The notes below the pieces were generated by a model. That model was given only the letters and a program-made list of their open reading frames with translations. It was not told the origin of the DNA and ran no database searches. Positions 128 to 59,836 of a stretch of DNA of 59,836 nucleotides are shown piece by piece. Position numbers and translations under genes: made by a program. Origin of the DNA: a virus (taxonomy: Duplodnaviria > Caudoviricetes); IMG/VR virus record IMGVR_UViG_3300046791_000436, positions 1 to 59,836 of that record; one strand, written 5' to 3'. Numbering within the stretch: position 1 is the first letter of the stretch; each line of letters starts with the position of its first letter.

Positions 128-748
128 GTCGATCTTGGCGCTTGTGAAGAGGCGCGGATCTGGGCCAAGGACTACGCCGATCTTCAATCGGCGTGGGACA
201 AGTGCGAACGTGGCGATTGGATGCTCTGGCTTCTGCAGAGATCCAAGGACCCGGACCGCAAGAAGATCGTTCGCACGACCTGTGACATTGCCAGGACCGT
301 GTTGCATCTGATTCCTGCCAATGAGGACAGGCCACGTCTGGCGATCGAAGCAGCCGAAGGCTGGTGCGAAGGAAAGGTCTCGATCGAGACTGCCTACGCT
401 GCTGCCCGCGCTGCTGCCGACGCTGCCTATGCTGCCCGCGCTGCTGCCTATGCTGCTGCCGACGCTGCCGACGCTGCCGACGCTGCTGCTGCTGCCGACG
501 CTGCTGCCGACGCTGCTGCCTACGCTGCTGCCGACGCTGCCGACGCTGCTGCCGACGCTGCCGACGCTGCTGCTGCTGCCGACGCTGCTGCCGCTGCTGC
601 CTATGCTGCTGCCGACGCTGCCGACGCTGCCGACGCTGCTGCCGCTGCTGCCTATGCTGCTGCTGCTGCTGCTGCTGCCGCTGCTGCTTCTGGTTTGAAA
701 CAAGCACACATTGTGCGCAAGCACTTCCCCCTAGCACCGAGGTTCTGA
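113..748 (+). CDS. Phage protein with Ala-rich (AAYAAADA) repeat tail, Imm5-like
   Basis: ATG 113 follows GGAGA. Contains ACEEARIWA, RGDWMLWLL and RPRLAIEAAEGW motifs, then a low-complexity Ala/Asp/Tyr tract. Confidence 0.75.
   Translation: MLQILVDLGACEEARIWAKDYADLQSAWDKCERGDWMLWLLQRSKDPDRKKIVRTTCDIARTVLHLIPANEDRPRLAIEAAEGWCEGKVSIETAYAAARAAADAAYAARAAAYAAADAADAADAAAAADAAADAAAYAAADAADAAADAADAAAAADAAAAAAYAAADAADAADAAAAAAYAAAAAAAAAAASGLKQAHIVRKHFPLAPRF
391..688 (+). repeat. Coding low-complexity GCT/GCC/GAC tandem repeat
   Basis: Irregular repeats of GCTGCCGAC and GCTGCCTAT that encode the Ala-rich tract. Confidence 0.9.
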
Positions 749-2966: not shown

Positions 2967-3628
2967 CCGTCTTCTACAAAGGTCCGTCCATGTTGGACGG
3001 CAAGCCGATCGTCGCCATCGCGACCGACCGGACGAAGAACCGCAAGACCGGCGACATGATCCAGACCTGGATCCTGCGCGCCGATCAGGACCCGCTCGCA
3101 GCGGTGTTCAGCGGAGCCGACTCCTCGATCTGCGGGGACTGCAGGCATCGCGGGAAGAACACCAAGGCAGAGCCCAGGACGTGCTACGTGACCGTTGCCC
3201 AGGCCCCTCTCGGGATCTGGCGCAAGTGGAAGAGTGGCGGGTATCCCAAGGGACCGCTGCCGACGCACAAGCCCGTCAGGATGGGCGCCTACGGCGACCC
3301 GGTGGCGGTGCCTTGGCAGGCCTGGACGGGCCTGCACTCGGCGAACCTGTGGACCGGCTACACACACCAGTGGCGGCAGCTGATCGCCTCGCCGTTCCGC
3401 AACGTGCTGATGGCCTCGTGCGACAGCGAGCAGGAAGAGAAGCTCGCCCAGCTGATGGGCTGGCGGACCTTCCGCGTCATGAAACCAGGCACAACAGGCA
3501 CCGCCCTCGAGTGCCCATCGAACAAAGGAGCTCAGTGCGCGCACTGCGGACTCTGCTCCGGGTTGAACCGACCAGACGCACCGTCCGTCTGGATCGAAGC
3601 ACACGGGACGGCAAAGGCATTCGTGTGA
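2963..3628 (+). CDS. Cys-rich conserved phage protein (possible Fe-S / radical-SAM-like)
   Basis: GTG start after GGAGG. Motifs GPSMLDGKPIV, NRKTGDMIQTWIL, ICGDCRHR..CYV, RMGAYGDP, TGYTHQW and CAHCGLC. Confidence 0.7.
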   Translation: MTVFYKGPSMLDGKPIVAIATDRTKNRKTGDMIQTWILRADQDPLAAVFSGADSSICGDCRHRGKNTKAEPRTCYVTVAQAPLGIWRKWKSGGYPKGPLPTHKPVRMGAYGDPVAVPWQAWTGLHSANLWTGYTHQWRQLIASPFRNVLMASCDSEQEEKLAQLMGWRTFRVMKPGTTGTALECPSNKGAQCAHCGLCSGLNRPDAPSVWIEAHGTAKAFV

Positions 3629-54383: not shown

Positions 54384-54833
54384 TCATTCGAAGTAGGCCA
54401 CGGCTTGTCTGACCGCTTCCGAAGAGGTGTCGAACTCTGCGGCTACCAAAAGCATGTCTTTGGTGAGCAACCAGCATTGGTAGATCTGTGCCATGCGTCG
54501 AAGAGCGCCTCCGGCCGGTCTGCCTCTGCCGTTTACGACCAGATCCAGGTTCTCGAGAGCGCAGTTGGAGTTGTTGCCGTCTTTTGCTCTCAGAGTGGTG
54601 CATCCGTTCTCGTTCCAGCTCGGCATCCACGCATCTGCTACCAAAGTTCTAGTCATCACTGACGAGTTGCGGTATTTCACCGAAGGATGTGAGCTGACGA
54701 GGGTCTGTTTGATCTTGTGGACCCTCAAAACAGTGCCATTTTCGTCAGCAAAGAGGTCTGGAATGGGTCCGCAACGACGAAAACGAGTCGTTTTTCCGTC
54801 GGCGTCCACGAGCAAAAGGTCTGTTTCGAGCAT
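54384..54833 (-). CDS. Degenerate HNH-fold protein with C-terminal HTH-like segment
   Basis: TLVADAW...RAKDGNNSNCALENL; VAAEFDTSSEAVRQAV. Confidence 0.6.
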   Translation of the reverse strand: MLETDLLLVDADGKTTRFRRCGPIPDLFADENGTVLRVHKIKQTLVSSHPSVKYRNSSVMTRTLVADAWMPSWNENGCTTLRAKDGNNSNCALENLDLVVNGRGRPAGGALRRMAQIYQCWLLTKDMLLVAAEFDTSSEAVRQAVAYFE

Positions 54834-55102
54834 GTTTTGGGACCTGAATCTGAGCGTTTTTACTACCTAGAGCCTGCTTTTCAAGCCTTTTTCGACTGTT
54901 TTTGCTGCCTCGAGTGAGGTGAAAATGGCCTGTTTTATTGCTGCTGGGCTACTTTTTGGCCCGAAATGCTGCTGCCGAAGCCTCTGTCGCTGGAAAGAAA
55001 CGCCTGAATATTACTACCGAGGCCTGTTTGGCGAATATTATTGCTAGAGAGAAACGCAGGGAAAAGTTGTGAGGAGGCACAGCTAGTAGAGCGCGCAGGC
55101 CG

Positions 55103-56149
55103 CTACGTAGCGGCCTGTGCGAGCACCTTCGTCGCGATGAAAGCACCGCGGCGGTCGAGTCCCTTGGAGAGAAGGGCGAGGATGCGCGGCCTTGCTTCCG
55201 AAAGGGCGCGTCGTTCGTTGTCCGTCAACGTCAGTTCGCCGCTGCCGCCGAGGAGCTTGCCCATGGCCACGGCAGAACGCTCGCCGGTCGTTCCGCCGAT
55301 GCATTCCCGGAGGTAGCGAATGACGTTGTCTGGTGAGTAGGCGTCAGAGCTGCCGAACGTCGCCAGCGAATCGACGATGCCAGCGGTCCGCTTGCGCGCT
55401 GCCCTTGCTTCGCGATCGGCGAGATTGCGCGCGGTGCGCCGCAGGAAGGCGAACGGCCAGACGCACGGTCCCCCCTTCTTTCGTGCGGCGCCCTTGCGCA
55501 CGCGGCCGGTGCGAAGTTCTTCCACCGCGGCCGGCGGGAGATTGCATCCCGTCTCTCGTTCCCACAGAAGGGCGAGCGCATCCTGGTATTCCTCATGCCC
55601 GGGCGCCGCATGCGTGGTGCCGGACGTGCGCCGCTGGCCGTTCGTCCACTTTCTCTCGGCACGGTGGCCCAGCACGAAGAAACGCGCGACGGTGTCGAAG
55701 GAAACCGACAGTCCGCTTGCGGGATCGAAGACGGCGAGCATCGCCGCGCGCAGTTCGTTCTGCCCCTCTGGCGAGGTAAGGTAGGAACGTTCCTCGGGCG
55801 AGCGCTTGCCCCGCTTCGCATGCTGCTGAAGAATCGGGGGGAGAAGGGCGAGCGCTGCCGCGAGCGTTCCGCTGACGGCCGTTCCCCGCTTGTCGATCGG
55901 TGCCCCCTCTCCCATGCCATCGCGGTCGCCCTTGGTTCGCTTCGGCGCCGGGATCGTCAAGGAAGGGCGGAAGGCGCTGTTGCCGTCGATGCCGTTGCCG
56001 TGCACGTTCGGGGCCGGGCGATCCAGGGGAACATCCTGCGGGCCGCTAGGAGCCCTTCCAGCATCGATCGGGGGAAGGGGAAGGGCGAGATTGGCGCGGA
56101 ACGTCGCCATACGGGAAAGACGTAGGGCGAGGATGGGAAGGTCGGTCAT
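55103..56149 (-). CDS. Hypothetical protein with a sigma region-2-like segment
   Basis: EEYQDALALLWE...FAFLRRTARN. Confidence 0.45.
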   Translation of the reverse strand: MTDLPILALRLSRMATFRANLALPLPPIDAGRAPSGPQDVPLDRPAPNVHGNGIDGNSAFRPSLTIPAPKRTKGDRDGMGEGAPIDKRGTAVSGTLAAALALLPPILQQHAKRGKRSPEERSYLTSPEGQNELRAAMLAVFDPASGLSVSFDTVARFFVLGHRAERKWTNGQRRTSGTTHAAPGHEEYQDALALLWERETGCNLPPAAVEELRTGRVRKGAARKKGGPCVWPFAFLRRTARNLADREARAARKRTAGIVDSLATFGSSDAYSPDNVIRYLRECIGGTTGERSAVAMGKLLGGSGELTLTDNERRALSEARPRILALLSKGLDRRGAFIATKVLAQAAT

Positions 56150-56199
56150 TCGGTCGGTCGCTTGGGTAAGGCGCGGGCGGGATGCTCGCGCGCACGACG

Positions 56200-57010
56200 G
56201 TAACGTTCCGGAACGTTCGGTCCCCACCGCATTATTAGAGGTTATACAATTCCGTTACCTTGCCAGGCTAGCAAGATTCAAGCCAGGAATTGTTCCTTGC
56301 CGATTCCTGGCCGACGGGCGAACGTTGACCGGCGTTCGGGCCCTACTAGGTGGAGGTAGCGCGCTGCGGCGCGCGGCAGACGAGTGTGCGGTGCGGCGCA
56401 CGGTTGGTTACGGCCAACCGTGCGCTGCGGCGCCTTTTCGGGAAAAAATCCCGAAAACAGGCTCGTTTACCTTCAGGCGCAAGACACAATTAGCTCCCTG
56501 GACTGGGTTTGGGACTGAAATCGCGACTCATTACGGTTCTCAGTCTATCCCGCGAGGTCGAGTTAATATTGTATTGCTAGGACTTAGCCCCTTACCAGGA
56601 CTGGACTTAGGTCTGCTGAGAGGGGGGGTCTGTCCGTTAGAAGTTCTACCTCTGTTTTACCGGGAGGTGGGACCGACCCCGAGTAAGGGTCAACTCTAAA
56701 AATAGGGGGTTGACTAACCGGCAGGATCTAGGTCCGGTTTTAACGTAGTCCCTCTGGGTCACAAGTAGCAATAAAACTGAGTTGAAACTTTTTACTGCAA
56801 CTTGCTCTCATCCTCTCCCCAACTACACGGCCGCCAAACGACTTACCGCAGGTAAAATGGACGGCTGTCAGTAGTAAAGAGACCACCTCAAGATTTGATG
56901 AAGACCGTGCGTTTCGGCATTTATTCGGATAATGCCAGACTTCGACCCTTCGTCTAAAACAATTCTCGTTCGTCTACTCCTACCGTGCCAGTGGCACAGG
57001 ACTTGCTACA
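56200..57010. other. Long, AT-richer divergent non-coding control region
   Basis: No credible ORF. Palindrome AACGTTCCGGAACGTT at 56202-56217, inverted repeat 56282-56311, several GGACT repeats. Confidence 0.55.
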
Positions 57011-57013
57011 GAA

Positions 57014-57154
57014 ATGCCCTCCGCCGCAATCTGTGACCACGACTTCGTGGTCGTTTTCACGCCGGCCGGCGCCGTCGTGCATCAGGAGGGGGACTCGGTC
57101 CCGCTCACCTCGGCTGGCGTTGTCCGGCTGCAGGCCCTCGGCTACGGTCTCTGA
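57014..57154 (+). CDS. 46-aa early protein (not in the ORF track)
   Basis: MPSAAICDHDFVVVFTPAGAVVHQEGDSVPLTSAGVVRLQALGYGL. Confidence 0.45.
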   Translation: MPSAAICDHDFVVVFTPAGAVVHQEGDSVPLTSAGVVRLQALGYGL

Positions 57155-57163
57155 TCGGTCTCG

Positions 57164-57245
57164 GAGCAGGCCCCCGACGACTCTCCCGCCCGCTTCCATC
57201 GCGGGCCTGGCGAAAGCCCTGGGAGCTGTCATCGCCGGCCTGCTC
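57164..57245 (+). ncRNA. Candidate branched RNA structure
   Basis: GAGCAGGCC/GGCCTGCTC, CTCCC/GGGAG and GCCCGC/GCGGGC helices. Confidence 0.45.
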
Positions 57246-57255
57246 GGAGGTCGCC

Positions 57256-57453
57256 ATGACCAAGAACCCAGAACTCGAGGCCAAACTGGCCGCCTTGCTC
57301 GAGGAACTCGACAAGATCCCAGCCTCACCAGACGATGCTGATCTCTGGGAGGAAGAAGGAAAACGACAGGACACGGCAGCTGGACTTTGCCACACCATCC
57401 TTCGGCACGTCAATCGTGACGGTCTTGGTGGATGTCGTCTCTGCCGCAGTTAG
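57256..57453 (+). CDS. Small early protein
   Basis: GGAGGT SD. Confidence 0.6.
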   Translation: MTKNPELEAKLAALLEELDKIPASPDDADLWEEEGKRQDTAAGLCHTILRHVNRDGLGGCRLCRS

Positions 57454-57578
57454 AAACGGCTCTGGAAAGAGCGCACGAATACCCAACCTCTCGGCAGGCG
57501 CATCGCCCGGCAGAGGACCTTCGTGTGCTCTTTCGAGTGCCGTCAATTTCGACGCACCCGGAAACCAAGGAAACTTCC

Positions 57579-57971
57579 ATGGCCCATCTGACACTGACCC
57601 CGGCCTACGGTCGGGACTACAAGTCAGCCAAGGCGGTCGAAGTGGACTTGCTCAAGGACAAGGACTTCACGGTGCAGCCGCAAGGTTGCTACGTGAACCT
57701 CGCCCAGCTCGAGCCTGGCCAGACCCTCAACGTGCGTTACCAACGCATGACGAAGGTCGCCGTGTTCAGCACCACCAAGCTCAAGAGCAAGCCACCCCCA
57801 GCGCCGAACGAGGGGGACTTCGACGTATGGCTGAAGAACGTTGGCCGCCAGGTCACCGCTATCTCCGGCCTCACCATCAGCGACTTCGCCGACGCCCCCA
57901 CCAGGGACTGGTTCAACGACGGCTGCACGGCCACCAAGGCCGCCCGGTCGATCGTGAGGAACGACTGGTGA
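57579..57971 (+). CDS. Early protein
   Basis: AAGGA SD; LTPAYGRDYKS and GKD-type segments. Confidence 0.7.
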   Translation: MAHLTLTPAYGRDYKSAKAVEVDLLKDKDFTVQPQGCYVNLAQLEPGQTLNVRYQRMTKVAVFSTTKLKSKPPPAPNEGDFDVWLKNVGRQVTAISGLTISDFADAPTRDWFNDGCTATKAARSIVRNDW

Positions 57972-58280
57972 ACGAATGAAGCACGACGTTCTCTGCGGCT
58001 GCGGCTGGGGACAGCTAGCGGTGCCTGAAGATCAGGTGCCCAACAACTGCCCGGTCTGCGGTTTCGACTTCTGGGCCTACGCCGAGCAAGGGGGGAGCTG
58101 AGCATGACGAGCACCGCACCAATTCTCTCGCTCTGCAACGTCTGCGGGCACCGCTGGATCGTGTTCCCGATGTGGCAGTGCGACTGTTGCGCCTTGGATG
58201 ACGACGGCGACCTTAGCGATGCCGATCGGGACAAGGATCGCTAACCCACCGCTCCCGACGGGGACGAGCTGCCATGAGCG

Positions 58281-58349
58281 GCCTCAACACAGCAAGCCGG
58301 TCCCAAGCCCGGCAACGGACTCACCTCGAGTTCGGATGTGGAGGGAGGC
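58281..58349 (+). ncRNA. Twister ribozyme 1 (type P1)
   Basis: P1 GCCU/AGGC; CAA; P2 CAC/GUG; AGC; P4 GCCGG-UCCCAAGC-CCGGC; P5 hairpin; GA-GGG pseudoknot with loop CCC. Confidence 0.9.
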
Positions 58350-58355
58350 AAACCC

Positions 58356-58463
58356 ATGATCTACTTGAAGCGCCTGCCCAACGGCAGGTTTGCCAAGGCT
58401 CGCCGCCCCTACAAGGGCGAGCTGATCCTCGGCCTGCTGCTGATCCTGGCCCTGGTGCTCTGA
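58356..58463 (+). CDS. 35-aa membrane peptide (not in the ORF track)
   Basis: MIYLKRLPNGRFAKARRPYKGELILGLLLILALVL. Its GGAGG SD lies inside the ribozyme 3' strand. Confidence 0.55.
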   Translation: MIYLKRLPNGRFAKARRPYKGELILGLLLILALVL

Positions 58464-58521
58464 TGCACGAGGACCACGATCAAGACCACGACCACGACCG
58501 CTGGACAAACGAGGGCGGCCG

Positions 58522-58734
58522 GTGACCGTCTCCTACAAGCCTGAAGTCCAGGCCGACGACACAGGGACCTGGACTGGCAACGCTCTGCGCTTCGCCACCA
58601 AGGAAGAAGCAGAGACCTACGTCAGCGATCTCCAGGCCCGTTGGATGCTCGTGCGCGCGACCCGTGTCGTGCAATCGGAGGACCCGGTAAACTACCGCTG
58701 GACCGACCACGGCATCGAAGCGATCAAGCCATGA
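58522..58734 (+). CDS. Small phage protein
   Basis: SYKPEV..W.GNALRFATKEEA..DL..RW..DPVNY. Confidence 0.7.
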   Translation: MTVSYKPEVQADDTGTWTGNALRFATKEEAETYVSDLQARWMLVRATRVVQSEDPVNYRWTDHGIEAIKP

Positions 58735-58937
58735 CCGACGAACCAACCGAGACCTACGCCCGCGTCGTCGAGCAGGGACTGGCCTTGCAACAGCAGGCAG
58801 CCAAGATCCTCGAGATCTGTGGCATCCACTACGACAACCTGATCGCCGGCCACCACCGGCTCAGGACCGTCGCTGACCTTCTGGGCGAAGCGCGGGAAAG
58901 CCTGCGCAAAGCCCGTGCTTGGCTCCCAACCAACTGA
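58731..58937 (+). CDS. Small helical protein
   Basis: ATGA coupling. Confidence 0.55.
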   Translation: MTDEPTETYARVVEQGLALQQQAAKILEICGIHYDNLIAGHHRLRTVADLLGEARESLRKARAWLPTN

Positions 58938-58943
58938 GGACCC

Positions 58944-59123
58944 ATGGACTGCCCCCGCTGCGGCCTGCCCATCAGCACGCAACACGCCTGCTGGGAGTGC
59001 AGGCCGGTCTTCGTTCGCCCGCCGCGACTCAACTTCGCTCGCAAGCGCGAGGCTTGGAAGACCGAACTGGTCTTGACGTGCCTCGCCATGGCCTGTCTGA
59101 TCGCACTCGCAATCTGGGGCTGA
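58944..59123 (+). CDS. 59-aa zinc-finger + TM peptide (not in the ORF track)
   Basis: GAGGA SD; MDCPRCG...CWEC...LVLTCLAMACLIALAIWG. Confidence 0.55.
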   Translation: MDCPRCGLPISTQHACWECRPVFVRPPRLNFARKREAWKTELVLTCLAMACLIALAIWG

Positions 59124-59308
59124 TCCAGAAAAACCCGGAGGATGCCATGTAGCAGTCCTACTCAAAAGCGAAAGACTCAAATACTCGCTTTTGGCGGCCT
59201 AGCGAGCCGTCAGCCGTGAACCAGGACCTTCGAAAGATGCAGGAAAAGAAAGCGCCGGCTCGGCGCTAGAACACAAATGCGAGCACTCGCCGGGTAGCTG
59301 AGGCGCCC

Positions 59309-59417
59309 GGCACGTTTATCCCAGCCAGTGGAACCGCCGCAGATCCGAGTAGCCCTCGGAAACAGGACGGGAAAGCTGAAGGTCTCAAGCCCTTGTAAAT
59401 TGGAGAGAGGACGTGCC
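59309..59417 (+). ncRNA. Twister ribozyme 2 (variant, large P3)
   Basis: P1 GGCACGUU/GACGUGCC; P4 AAGG-UCUCAAGC-CCUU; GA-GAG pseudoknot with CUC. L1 reads UAU and P2 is imperfect. Confidence 0.65.
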
Positions 59418-59498
59418 TGCGGTAATCGATCTAACGTGGATCGGTAGCTCATTTCCAACCTAAGAAACTGGTTGCGACACAAGAGCGGTGTCAGCAGG

Positions 59499-59599
59499 TG
59501 TCCTAATGCGGCCCTCGAGGACTCGTGAGATACTCGGGGACGGTGACAAGCCCGTAAAACGTCCGGCCCGCGGGGTGACGAAAACGCAGAGTCAGGACA
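59499..59599 (+). ncRNA. Twister ribozyme 3 (type P1 with P3 and P5)
   Basis: P1 UGUCC/GGACA; UAA; P2 UGC/GCA; GGC; P3; P4 ACGG-UGACAAGC-CCGU; P5; GA-GUCA pseudoknot with UGAC. Confidence 0.92.
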
Positions 59600-59709
59600 A
59601 GCCCTCGGTGAACGGCAAAGTTTCCGTAAGCCGGATCGGGATCTTCGCAAGCAACTGGACCATGCCTACCGGCTACAGAAAGGTTGCCCAAGTCGACCGG
59701 TCTCGAATG

Positions 59710-59836
59710 TCTCCCGAAAGCAGTCCCTAAGAAGGCGCATGTATTGGAGCGTCGATGGGATCTCCCAATGCAGCCAACGACGGTGGTAAGCCCGTGCGTA
59801 ATGCAGAACCGGAGAAAAGACATGCTACAGATTCTG
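59710..59836. repeat. Terminal direct repeat / circular overlap (copy 2)
   Basis: Identical to 1-127. Confidence 0.95.
59761..59815 (+). ncRNA. Twister ribozyme 4 (minimal type P1)
   Basis: P1 UCUCC/GGAGA; CAA; P2 UGC/GCA; AGC; P4 ACGG-UGGUAAGC-CCGU; GA-ACC pseudoknot with GGU. Confidence 0.9.

Follow-up and report, generated by a model that had tools for sequence, protein, structure and literature searches.

Twister ribozymes in a soil phage genome, two of them overlapping the Shine-Dalgarno sequence of the ORF that follows

The last ~1.6 kb of IMG/VR virus record IMGVR_UViG_3300046791_000436, the complete record of a circular 59.7-kb soil phage, carries four elements (58281-59815) that have the anatomy of type-P1 twister ribozymes. 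All are on the + strand of the window, by which we mean the whole stretch of 59,836 nt that was analysed, and none overlaps a coding-like open reading frame (ORF). Twister 1 (58281-58349) and twister 4 (59761-59815) end 6 nt before a start codon, and their 3' strands contain the Shine-Dalgarno (SD) sequence of the downstream ORF, wholly within helix P1 in twister 4 and in part in twister 1. We consider it most probable (roughly 0.6) that the four elements are constitutive mRNA-processing ribozymes packed against the ribosome binding site (RBS), and that translation after cleavage is a side effect of this packing.

Each ribozyme would most likely cut the nascent transcript constitutively (C58285^A58286, U59317^A59318, U59504^A59505 and C59766^A59767 for twisters 1 to 4), which would part the upstream RNA from the message that follows. 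The body of the ribozyme would remain on the downstream mRNA as a compact, structured cap with a 5'-OH end. With twisters 1 and 4 packed 6 nt from the start codon, the RBS must be built from the ribozyme's own 3' strand, i.e., from GGAGA of P1 in twister 4 and from GGAGG, contributed by T1 and P1, in twister 1. In the uncut, folded RNA the SD would be paired, and after the cut the weak P1 of 4-5 bp would open and leave it at least partly accessible. Because the SD would be paired until the cut, translation of both cistrons would follow cleavage. The outcome would be a fixed processing order and an insulation device arising from compaction, not a regulated switch. Twisters 2 and 3 lie in ORF-free sequence and precede no gene, which argues that translation gating is not the purpose shared by the four elements and fits processing.

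Anatomy of the four elements

Scanning with Rfam at gathering score returned no match. At E ≤ 1 the whole window gave five matches, all to twister-P1 (RF03160) and all on the + strand, comprising the four elements (58281-58349, 29.0 bits; 59313-59413, 36.3 bits; 59500-59597, 31.3 bits; 59762-59814, 27.3 bits) and the terminal-repeat copy of the last one (53-105); no riboswitch family was found in the window at this threshold. Twister 4 had an E value of 0.0054 in a 2.8-kb search. The gathering score of RF03160 (67.2 bits) is a database cut-off and not a structural definition, and every helix was inspected base by base. The low scores can be explained by non-consensus T1 triplets, by the long P3 and P5 inserts of twisters 2 and 3, and by the lack of such inserts in twister 4.

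The type-P1 helix order, with P1, P2 and P4 and with the termini in P1, is present in all four elements. P1 has 4, 8, 5 and 5 pairs in twisters 1 to 4, P4 has four in each, and P2 has four in twisters 1, 3 and 4, and three plus a C-A mismatch in twister 2. Twister 1 contains a P5 hairpin (58316-58334), twister 2 (59309-59417) a long P3, and twister 3 (59499-59599) P3 and P5 hairpins as well as a bulged A59594, while twister 4 is a minimal form of 55 nt without P3 and P5. The GC of L2, the U...AAGC of L4 and the GA of L1 occur in every element, which provides for T2 at the sequence level; this pairing is invariant and thus yields no covariation. Cleavage sites were placed by alignment to the family model, and an A stands directly 3' of the predicted cut in each case (A58286, A59318, A59505 and A59767). 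An unconstrained minimum free energy fold of 59700-59864 recovers P1, P2 and P4 of twister 4.

Covariation is found in the T1 pseudoknot, which has three Watson-Crick pairs in all four elements: CCC/GGG, CUC/GAG, GAC/GUC and GGU/ACC in twisters 1 to 4. In twister 4 the L4 triplet GGU (59785-59787) pairs with ACC (59808-59810). By our own arithmetic, each non-consensus copy had a chance of 1/64 of showing a complementary T1 triplet. P4 is identical in twisters 3 and 4 (59540-59555 and 59780-59795), T1 differs by two compensated changes, and from these sequences the two look like paralogues that diverged by compensated substitutions.

The helices, the T1 and T2 contacts and the conserved L1 and L4 nucleotides are the defining features of twisters according to a review (PMC5408937). 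Since all helices are in place and the T1 triplets are compensated, we treat the four elements as real twisters despite their low scores: by anatomy they are genuine type-P1 twisters, for which self-cleavage is predicted. Twister 2 is the only one that is doubtful as a catalyst, since the second nucleotide after its cut is U and its P2 contains the mismatch.

With RF03160 the phage elements share the order P1-P2-(P3)-P4-(P5)-P2'-P1', the T1/T2 double pseudoknot, the conserved L1 and L4 nucleotides and a predicted cut before the conserved A that adjoins P1, twister 4 corresponding to the P3-less minimal form. They differ from the family in that they fall below its cut-off, in that T1 is non-consensus in twisters 2, 3 and 4, in that the cut follows C instead of U in twisters 1 and 4, and in that the 3' strand of P1 doubles as RBS.

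Shine-Dalgarno overlap and its predicted unmasking

In twister 4, GGAGA (59811-59815) is followed by the spacer AAAGAC and by ATG 59822-59824, which is position 113 in the repeat copy, leaving a gap of 6 nt. An earlier first-pass annotation of this DNA had named GGAGA as the sole SD-like sequence before this start and as the 3' strand of P1, and direct reading confirms both statements: in the 20 nt before ATG 59822, as in those before ATG 58356, there is no other SD core of at least 4 nt, and P1 consists of U59761-C59765 with G59811-A59815 in five Watson-Crick pairs, so that all five nucleotides of GGAGA are in the stem. The partner strand UCUCC (59761-59765), which would act as anti-SD, lies 5' of the predicted cut. 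Since the T1 strand of twister 4 is ACC, the SD-like GGAGA is not inherited from the twister consensus.

Twister 1 ends in GGGAGGC (58343-58349), and the spacer AAACCC again leaves 6 nt to ATG 58356-58358, at the coordinates that had been annotated. The composition of this SD differs from that in twister 4. The purine run GGAGGGAGGC (58340-58349) consists of the last G of P2, the conserved GA (G58341-A58342), the GGG of the T1 3' strand (G58343-G58345), which is outside P1, and the AGGC of P1, where G58281-U58284 forms four pairs with A58346-C58349. The best SD, GGAGG (58344-58348), spans T1 and P1, and only AGGC belongs to P1. With the run made up of the conserved GA and the T1 strand, the resemblance between the two loci derives in part from the twister consensus. 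The first-pass suggestion of the same design at two loci therefore stands for the 6 nt that separate P1 from the ATG in both, and not for the makeup of the SD.

SD strength was expressed as pairing energy to a generic anti-SD tail. For ATG 59822 it was -6.6 kcal/mol, a value equalled or bettered by 8.6% of 1500 random ATG/GTG codons, and for ATG 58356 it was -11.4 kcal/mol, with 0.3% of 1500 random codons as good. SD use in the genome is moderate, with medians of -5.2 kcal/mol for the best starts of 50 coding-like ORFs, -3.2 kcal/mol for their first starts and -2.6 kcal/mol for random ATG/GTG.

ATG 59822 opens ORF 113 (59822-59836, continuing as 113-748; 211 aa), which has a weak Imm5-like N-terminal domain (E 0.0029, below the Pfam cut-off) and homologues at 99 loci, 26 in IMG/VR and 73 in metagenomes. 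Starts were compared in the 33 homologue loci that align from query residue 5 or an earlier residue onwards. For 30 of them, the nearest in-frame start precedes the counterpart of Met-1 by 0-5 codons, and ATG 113 conforms to this pattern. The homologues commonly have strong SDs at like spacing, and with such ordinary SDs in this position GGAGA is probably a working RBS. The ORF that begins at ATG 58356 (58356-58463) has 35 codons and a hydrophobic C-terminus. The GC fractions at its codon positions 1/2/3 (0.61/0.36/0.92) are like those of the neighbouring genes, and it is probably a real small gene; no family match and no homologue-based support was found for it. Both start-codon assignments appear reasonable on this basis.

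To describe the unmasking of the SD, we used folding models, which leave out tertiary structure and kinetics. The isolated P1 duplexes are weak (-5.6 kcal/mol in twister 4 and -4.2 kcal/mol in twister 1), so the 5' product is expected to leave. With the native fold enforced, the predicted probability that GGAGA is unpaired is 0.00 in the precursor. In the 3' product it rises to 0.48 if the core including T1 persists and to 0.28 if the RNA refolds freely, the lower value because ACCGGAG (59808-59814) can pair with UUCUGGU (59830-59836) in the cleaved RNA. This alternative hairpin would re-pair the SD unless T1 holds ACC. In twister 1, AGGC is predicted to go from 0.00 to 0.40-0.93 unpaired after the cut, and GGG would remain in T1 if the core persists. 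On these models, unmasking of the SD by cleavage is plausible, but only in part.

Twister 4, having neither a P3 nor a P5 insert, shows no ligand-sensing aptamer. As the twisters have no known regulatory input, the arrangement would set an obligatory order of events and would not be a switch. A 5'-OH end guards against RNase E-type decay, but the 5'-OH product of the glmS ribozyme is a target of RNase J1. Any stabilisation of the message by its 5'-OH, which the first-pass annotation had included in its proposal, would depend on the host.

Processing and gating weighed against other twisters and known systems

The layout found here was compared with other phage twisters, which we retrieved from IMG/VR with the consensus P4/L4 16-mer as query (at least 113 stretches); all survey figures, here and below, are among the matches listed. 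The 106 distinct instances comprised 53 of type P1, 35 of type P5 and 18 that were unparsed, and those 52 of type P1 that had 330 nt of flanking sequence downstream formed 29 sequence families. Start codons were chosen by a heuristic of our own, which took ORFs of 45 codons or more and went by the best anti-SD pairing and the codon type. The distance from P1 to the start was at most 13 nt in 8 of the 29 families, 14-40 nt in 12 and larger in 9. The best SD was inside the 3' strand of the ribozyme (T1 strand or P1) in 6/29 families and separate in 12/29.

The type-P5 twisters (33 instances), inspected by eye and uncounted, mostly stood near an upstream stop codon and a downstream SD-ATG. Sequence 3' of P4 paired no better with the cognate flank 5' of the ribozyme (mean duplex -4.32 kcal/mol) than with non-cognate flanks (-4.35 kcal/mol), and on these equal values we rejected a general rule by which the closing stem is the SD. 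As judged from the sequences compared, the common theme is a ribozyme wedged between cistrons, with SD overlap as a recurrent minority variant at the compact end.

A second reading, which we regard as possible and rather doubtful, takes the SD/anti-SD pairing in P1 as the selected function. P1 of the phage twister would be an anti-SD clamp that locks the RBS until self-cleavage, the downstream cistron would be translatable only after the cut and the departure of the 5' fragment, and ORF 113 and the 35-codon ORF would be translated only from processed 5'-OH mRNA. The P1 of twister 4 covers exactly GGAGA, but the GGG of the SD in twister 1 would stay in T1 after the cut. P1 is phylogenetically conserved yet dispensable for catalysis, and is thus free for another role (PMC5408937). 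In E. coli, expression from an engineered twister that has SD and anti-SD in P1 was 5-fold higher with the active than with the inactive ribozyme, but absolute expression was low, the remaining ribozyme body abutting the SD (PMC5052635); for the phage element, release of the SD in the model is incomplete because of the hairpin 59808-59814/59830-59836. While the layout recurs in 6/29 type-P1 families, a separate SD is commoner, and type-P5 phage twisters show no SD pairing. The ordinary SDs of the ORF 113 homologues, which make GGAGA a probable RBS, are in keeping with gating, but none of the 99 homologue loci has a twister, and twisters 2 and 3 gate nothing.

The homologue loci were searched with a twister-core pattern (99 loci, 339,982 nt), and no twister was found. 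There were 13 relaxed core matches, and two of them, identical in sequence, passed a loose context filter. The match in locus L012 that passed this filter was rejected, being in coding sequence and without an Rfam match at E ≤ 1. The ribozyme therefore does not belong to the gene family as such, and selection cannot be judged from conservation. An IMG/VR pattern search for the L4/T1 variant of twister 4 returned three stretches, none of them a twister, and a 179-aa neighbour protein had no close relative in IMG/VR.

In locus L009 (~2975-3000), a homologue of ORF 113 with 44% identity has an RBS and spacer nearly identical to those in the window (AGGAGAAAAGATT-ATG as compared with CGGAGAAAAGAC-ATG) and no ribozyme. 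This makes it possible that the SD is older than the twister, and P1 may have evolved onto a pre-existing SD.

It is unlikely, in our judgement, that the SD likeness is incidental, i.e., that it results from the purine-rich 3' end of the twister consensus together with chance in P1, the ORFs being translated independently of cleavage. The ribozymes would then serve differential decay of upstream and downstream RNA, or the release of the RNAs of 187 and 262 nt between them. The 3' consensus of twisters is indeed SD-like, with GAGGG in all survey strings, but the T1 strand of twister 4 is ACC and not GGG, and its SD lies in the freely variable P1 at the usual spacing. After twister 2, too, there is a comparable SD-like run with a GTG (-6.4 kcal/mol), and the ORF of 16 codons at this place does not look coding (third-position GC 0.47); the moderate SD use across the genome agrees with an incidental origin. 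The three tandem ribozymes in an ORF-free leader also suit this reading, but the spacers between ribozymes show no significant folding signal and no look-alikes.

It is highly improbable that the elements only resemble twisters, being decayed or inactive, and that no cleavage occurs: scores of 27-36 bits against 67.2, together with the U and the C-A mismatch of twister 2, speak for it, but all helices of the four elements are intact, T1 is fully compensated, and the T1 triplets and P3/P5 account for the scores.

The processing reading, in which compaction alone brings ribozyme and RBS together, also has evidence against it. All four elements fall far short of the gathering score of RF03160, and twister 2 departs from the consensus beside the cut site and is possibly weak or dead. 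Exact coverage of the SD by P1 in twister 4 (5/5 nt) would be unneeded if compaction were the only cause, and since catalysis does not need P1 (PMC5408937), selection on masking is conceivable. The survey, in turn, relies on our own start heuristic and on twisters with one consensus 16-mer only.

RiboJ is a synthetic ribozyme insulator, and the glmS ribozyme is ligand-dependent and leaves a 5'-OH product that is destabilised. glmS, a bacterial self-cleaving ribozyme, resembles the predicted phage arrangement in lying in a 5' leader, where the cut alters the fate of the downstream mRNA; the phage twisters differ from it in lacking a ligand domain. RiboJ resembles the predicted phage arrangement in that the cut gives the cistron a defined, structured 5'-OH end, and the same holds for pRAP twister-assisted polycistronic co-expression (PMC9872166). 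These engineered parts are designed so that the RBS stays exposed, whereas in the phage it is inside the ribozyme.

The closest known design is the engineered twister platform of Felletti et al. (2016; PMC5052635), in which the SD is likewise sequestered in P1, the cut removes the anti-SD strand and the ribozyme body is directly upstream of the SD. That construct is synthetic, was built on the type-P3 env-9 scaffold and worked 5-fold in E. coli at low absolute output; its authors favoured the P3 format and added aptamers, whereas the phage elements have no aptamer. In constructs of the same study with an always-accessible SD, cleavage itself had no effect on expression or mRNA level.

Natural parallels come from hammerheads that occur in clusters on either side of prophage genes and cut polycistronic RNA (Perreault et al., 2011; PMC3088659). 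The hammerhead of haloviruses HF1/HF2 precedes the first ORF of an early polycistronic transcript by 13 nt, and the 5' end of this transcript was mapped to within 3 nt of the cut (PMC3088659). The phage resembles that class in having several coding-strand ribozymes grouped within a few kb, between or before ORFs and flanking small genes; it differs in that the published ribozymes are hammerheads and not twisters, and in that SD overlap is not described in the accessible part of that paper. That hammerhead and twister ribozymes process polycistronic transcripts has been proposed and is not established (PMC6765202, PMC5408937). Literature searches, in which coverage of subscription journals was incomplete, found no natural twister with an SD held in P1.

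The biological role of twisters is still called largely speculative (PMC5408937, PMC6765202). If the anti-SD clamp were real, nature would have its own version of the engineered ribozyme-gated RBS, and twisters would gain a definite biological role; the layout is present in about one-fifth of the phage type-P1 families surveyed. The phage is a compact natural test case: in one ribozyme, of 55 nt, P1 coincides exactly with the RBS of a gene that has many homologues, and another abuts a small ORF. Should masking matter, the conservation of P1 despite its catalytic dispensability would be explained, and a synthetic-biology design would already exist in nature. Should it not matter, the window would still contribute four unannotated twisters with T1 variants missed by the Rfam model, and further evidence that phage operons are punctuated by ribozymes.

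Genome context and side observations

The last 127 bases of the window (59710-59836) are identical to the first 127 (1-127). This direct terminal repeat of the assembly (127 bp) indicates that the record is circularly closed, with 59,709 unique bases; consequently 59761-59836 is the same DNA as 52-127, and twister 4 is also found at 52-106.

The small genes at 57432-59123 mostly abut or overlap, and the only sizeable gap, of 111 nt between ORF 58104-58244 and ATG 58356, is occupied by twister 1. Twisters 2, 3 and 4 stand in tandem within ORF-free sequence (59124-59821), a leader of ~700 nt ahead of a long block of + strand genes. Analysis of GC by codon position detected no coding-like ORF after twisters 2 and 3. 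A promoter scan of 54500-59836 gave no sites, and a tRNA scan gave no genes. No RNA sequencing run containing 57400-59836 was found, and among the contigs of three DNA runs the ribozymes were covered only by those of the run that is the probable source.

Two hairpins were noticed in the leader: a terminator-like GC hairpin followed by a T-run at 59251-59267 on the - strand, and an AU-rich hairpin with a U-run at ~59164-59194 on the + strand. They may separate the block of small genes from the ribozyme leader, or end an antisense transcript that crosses the ribozymes. The predicted cuts of twisters 2, 3 and 4 would free RNAs of 187 nt (59318-59504) and 262 nt (59505-59766), whose ends would be 5'-OH and 2',3'-cyclic phosphate. 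No significant folding signal was found in the spacers between the ribozymes and in the leader (z -1.6, 0.0 and -0.4, the first two being the 187-nt and 262-nt spacers).

Two upstream in-frame codons were considered as alternative starts of ORF 113 and rejected. ATG 92 (+7 residues) and ATG 59 (+18 residues) have weak SDs (-2.9 and -4.0 kcal/mol, respectively), are inside P2 strands and disagree with the N-termini of the homologues. The second of these, AUG 59768-59770 (59-61), comes directly after the predicted cut of twister 4 and is in frame with ORF 113 without an intervening stop. Leaderless-type initiation requires a 5' phosphate. A near-leaderless A-AUG mRNA starting from ATG 59 is unlikely, since the AUG would be paired in P2 and the end would be a 5'-OH. 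The position of this AUG right after the cut is probably a coincidence; the commonest P2 in the survey likewise starts with UGC after AA.

A blastn search against 50,697 phage records gave a sole match, of 43 nt in the 35-codon ORF. These nucleotides (58427-58469, at the 3' end of the ORF) match hypothetical genes in 52 Pseudomonas phage records at 86-91% identity, and may reflect a shared small membrane peptide or sequence composition. The C-terminal half of ORF 113 (window 440-700) is a long Ala/Asp/Tyr-rich repeat, encoded by a GCT/GCC/GAC run with a periodicity of 9-18 nt.

Some features of the surveyed twisters were also noted. In the type-P5 set (L029-L141), the stop codon was often a few bases from the 5' end of the ribozyme, and the SD-ATG followed P4 at a median of ~20 nt (0-67). 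A GC hairpin was often found directly 5' of P1 in the type-P1 examples. The twisters in IMG/VR loci L035, L052, L078 and L097 have, like twister 1, a P2 of CACA/UGUG, a C before the cut and a P5 insert, and each is followed after ~12 nt by the ATG of an ORF of 73-85 codons.

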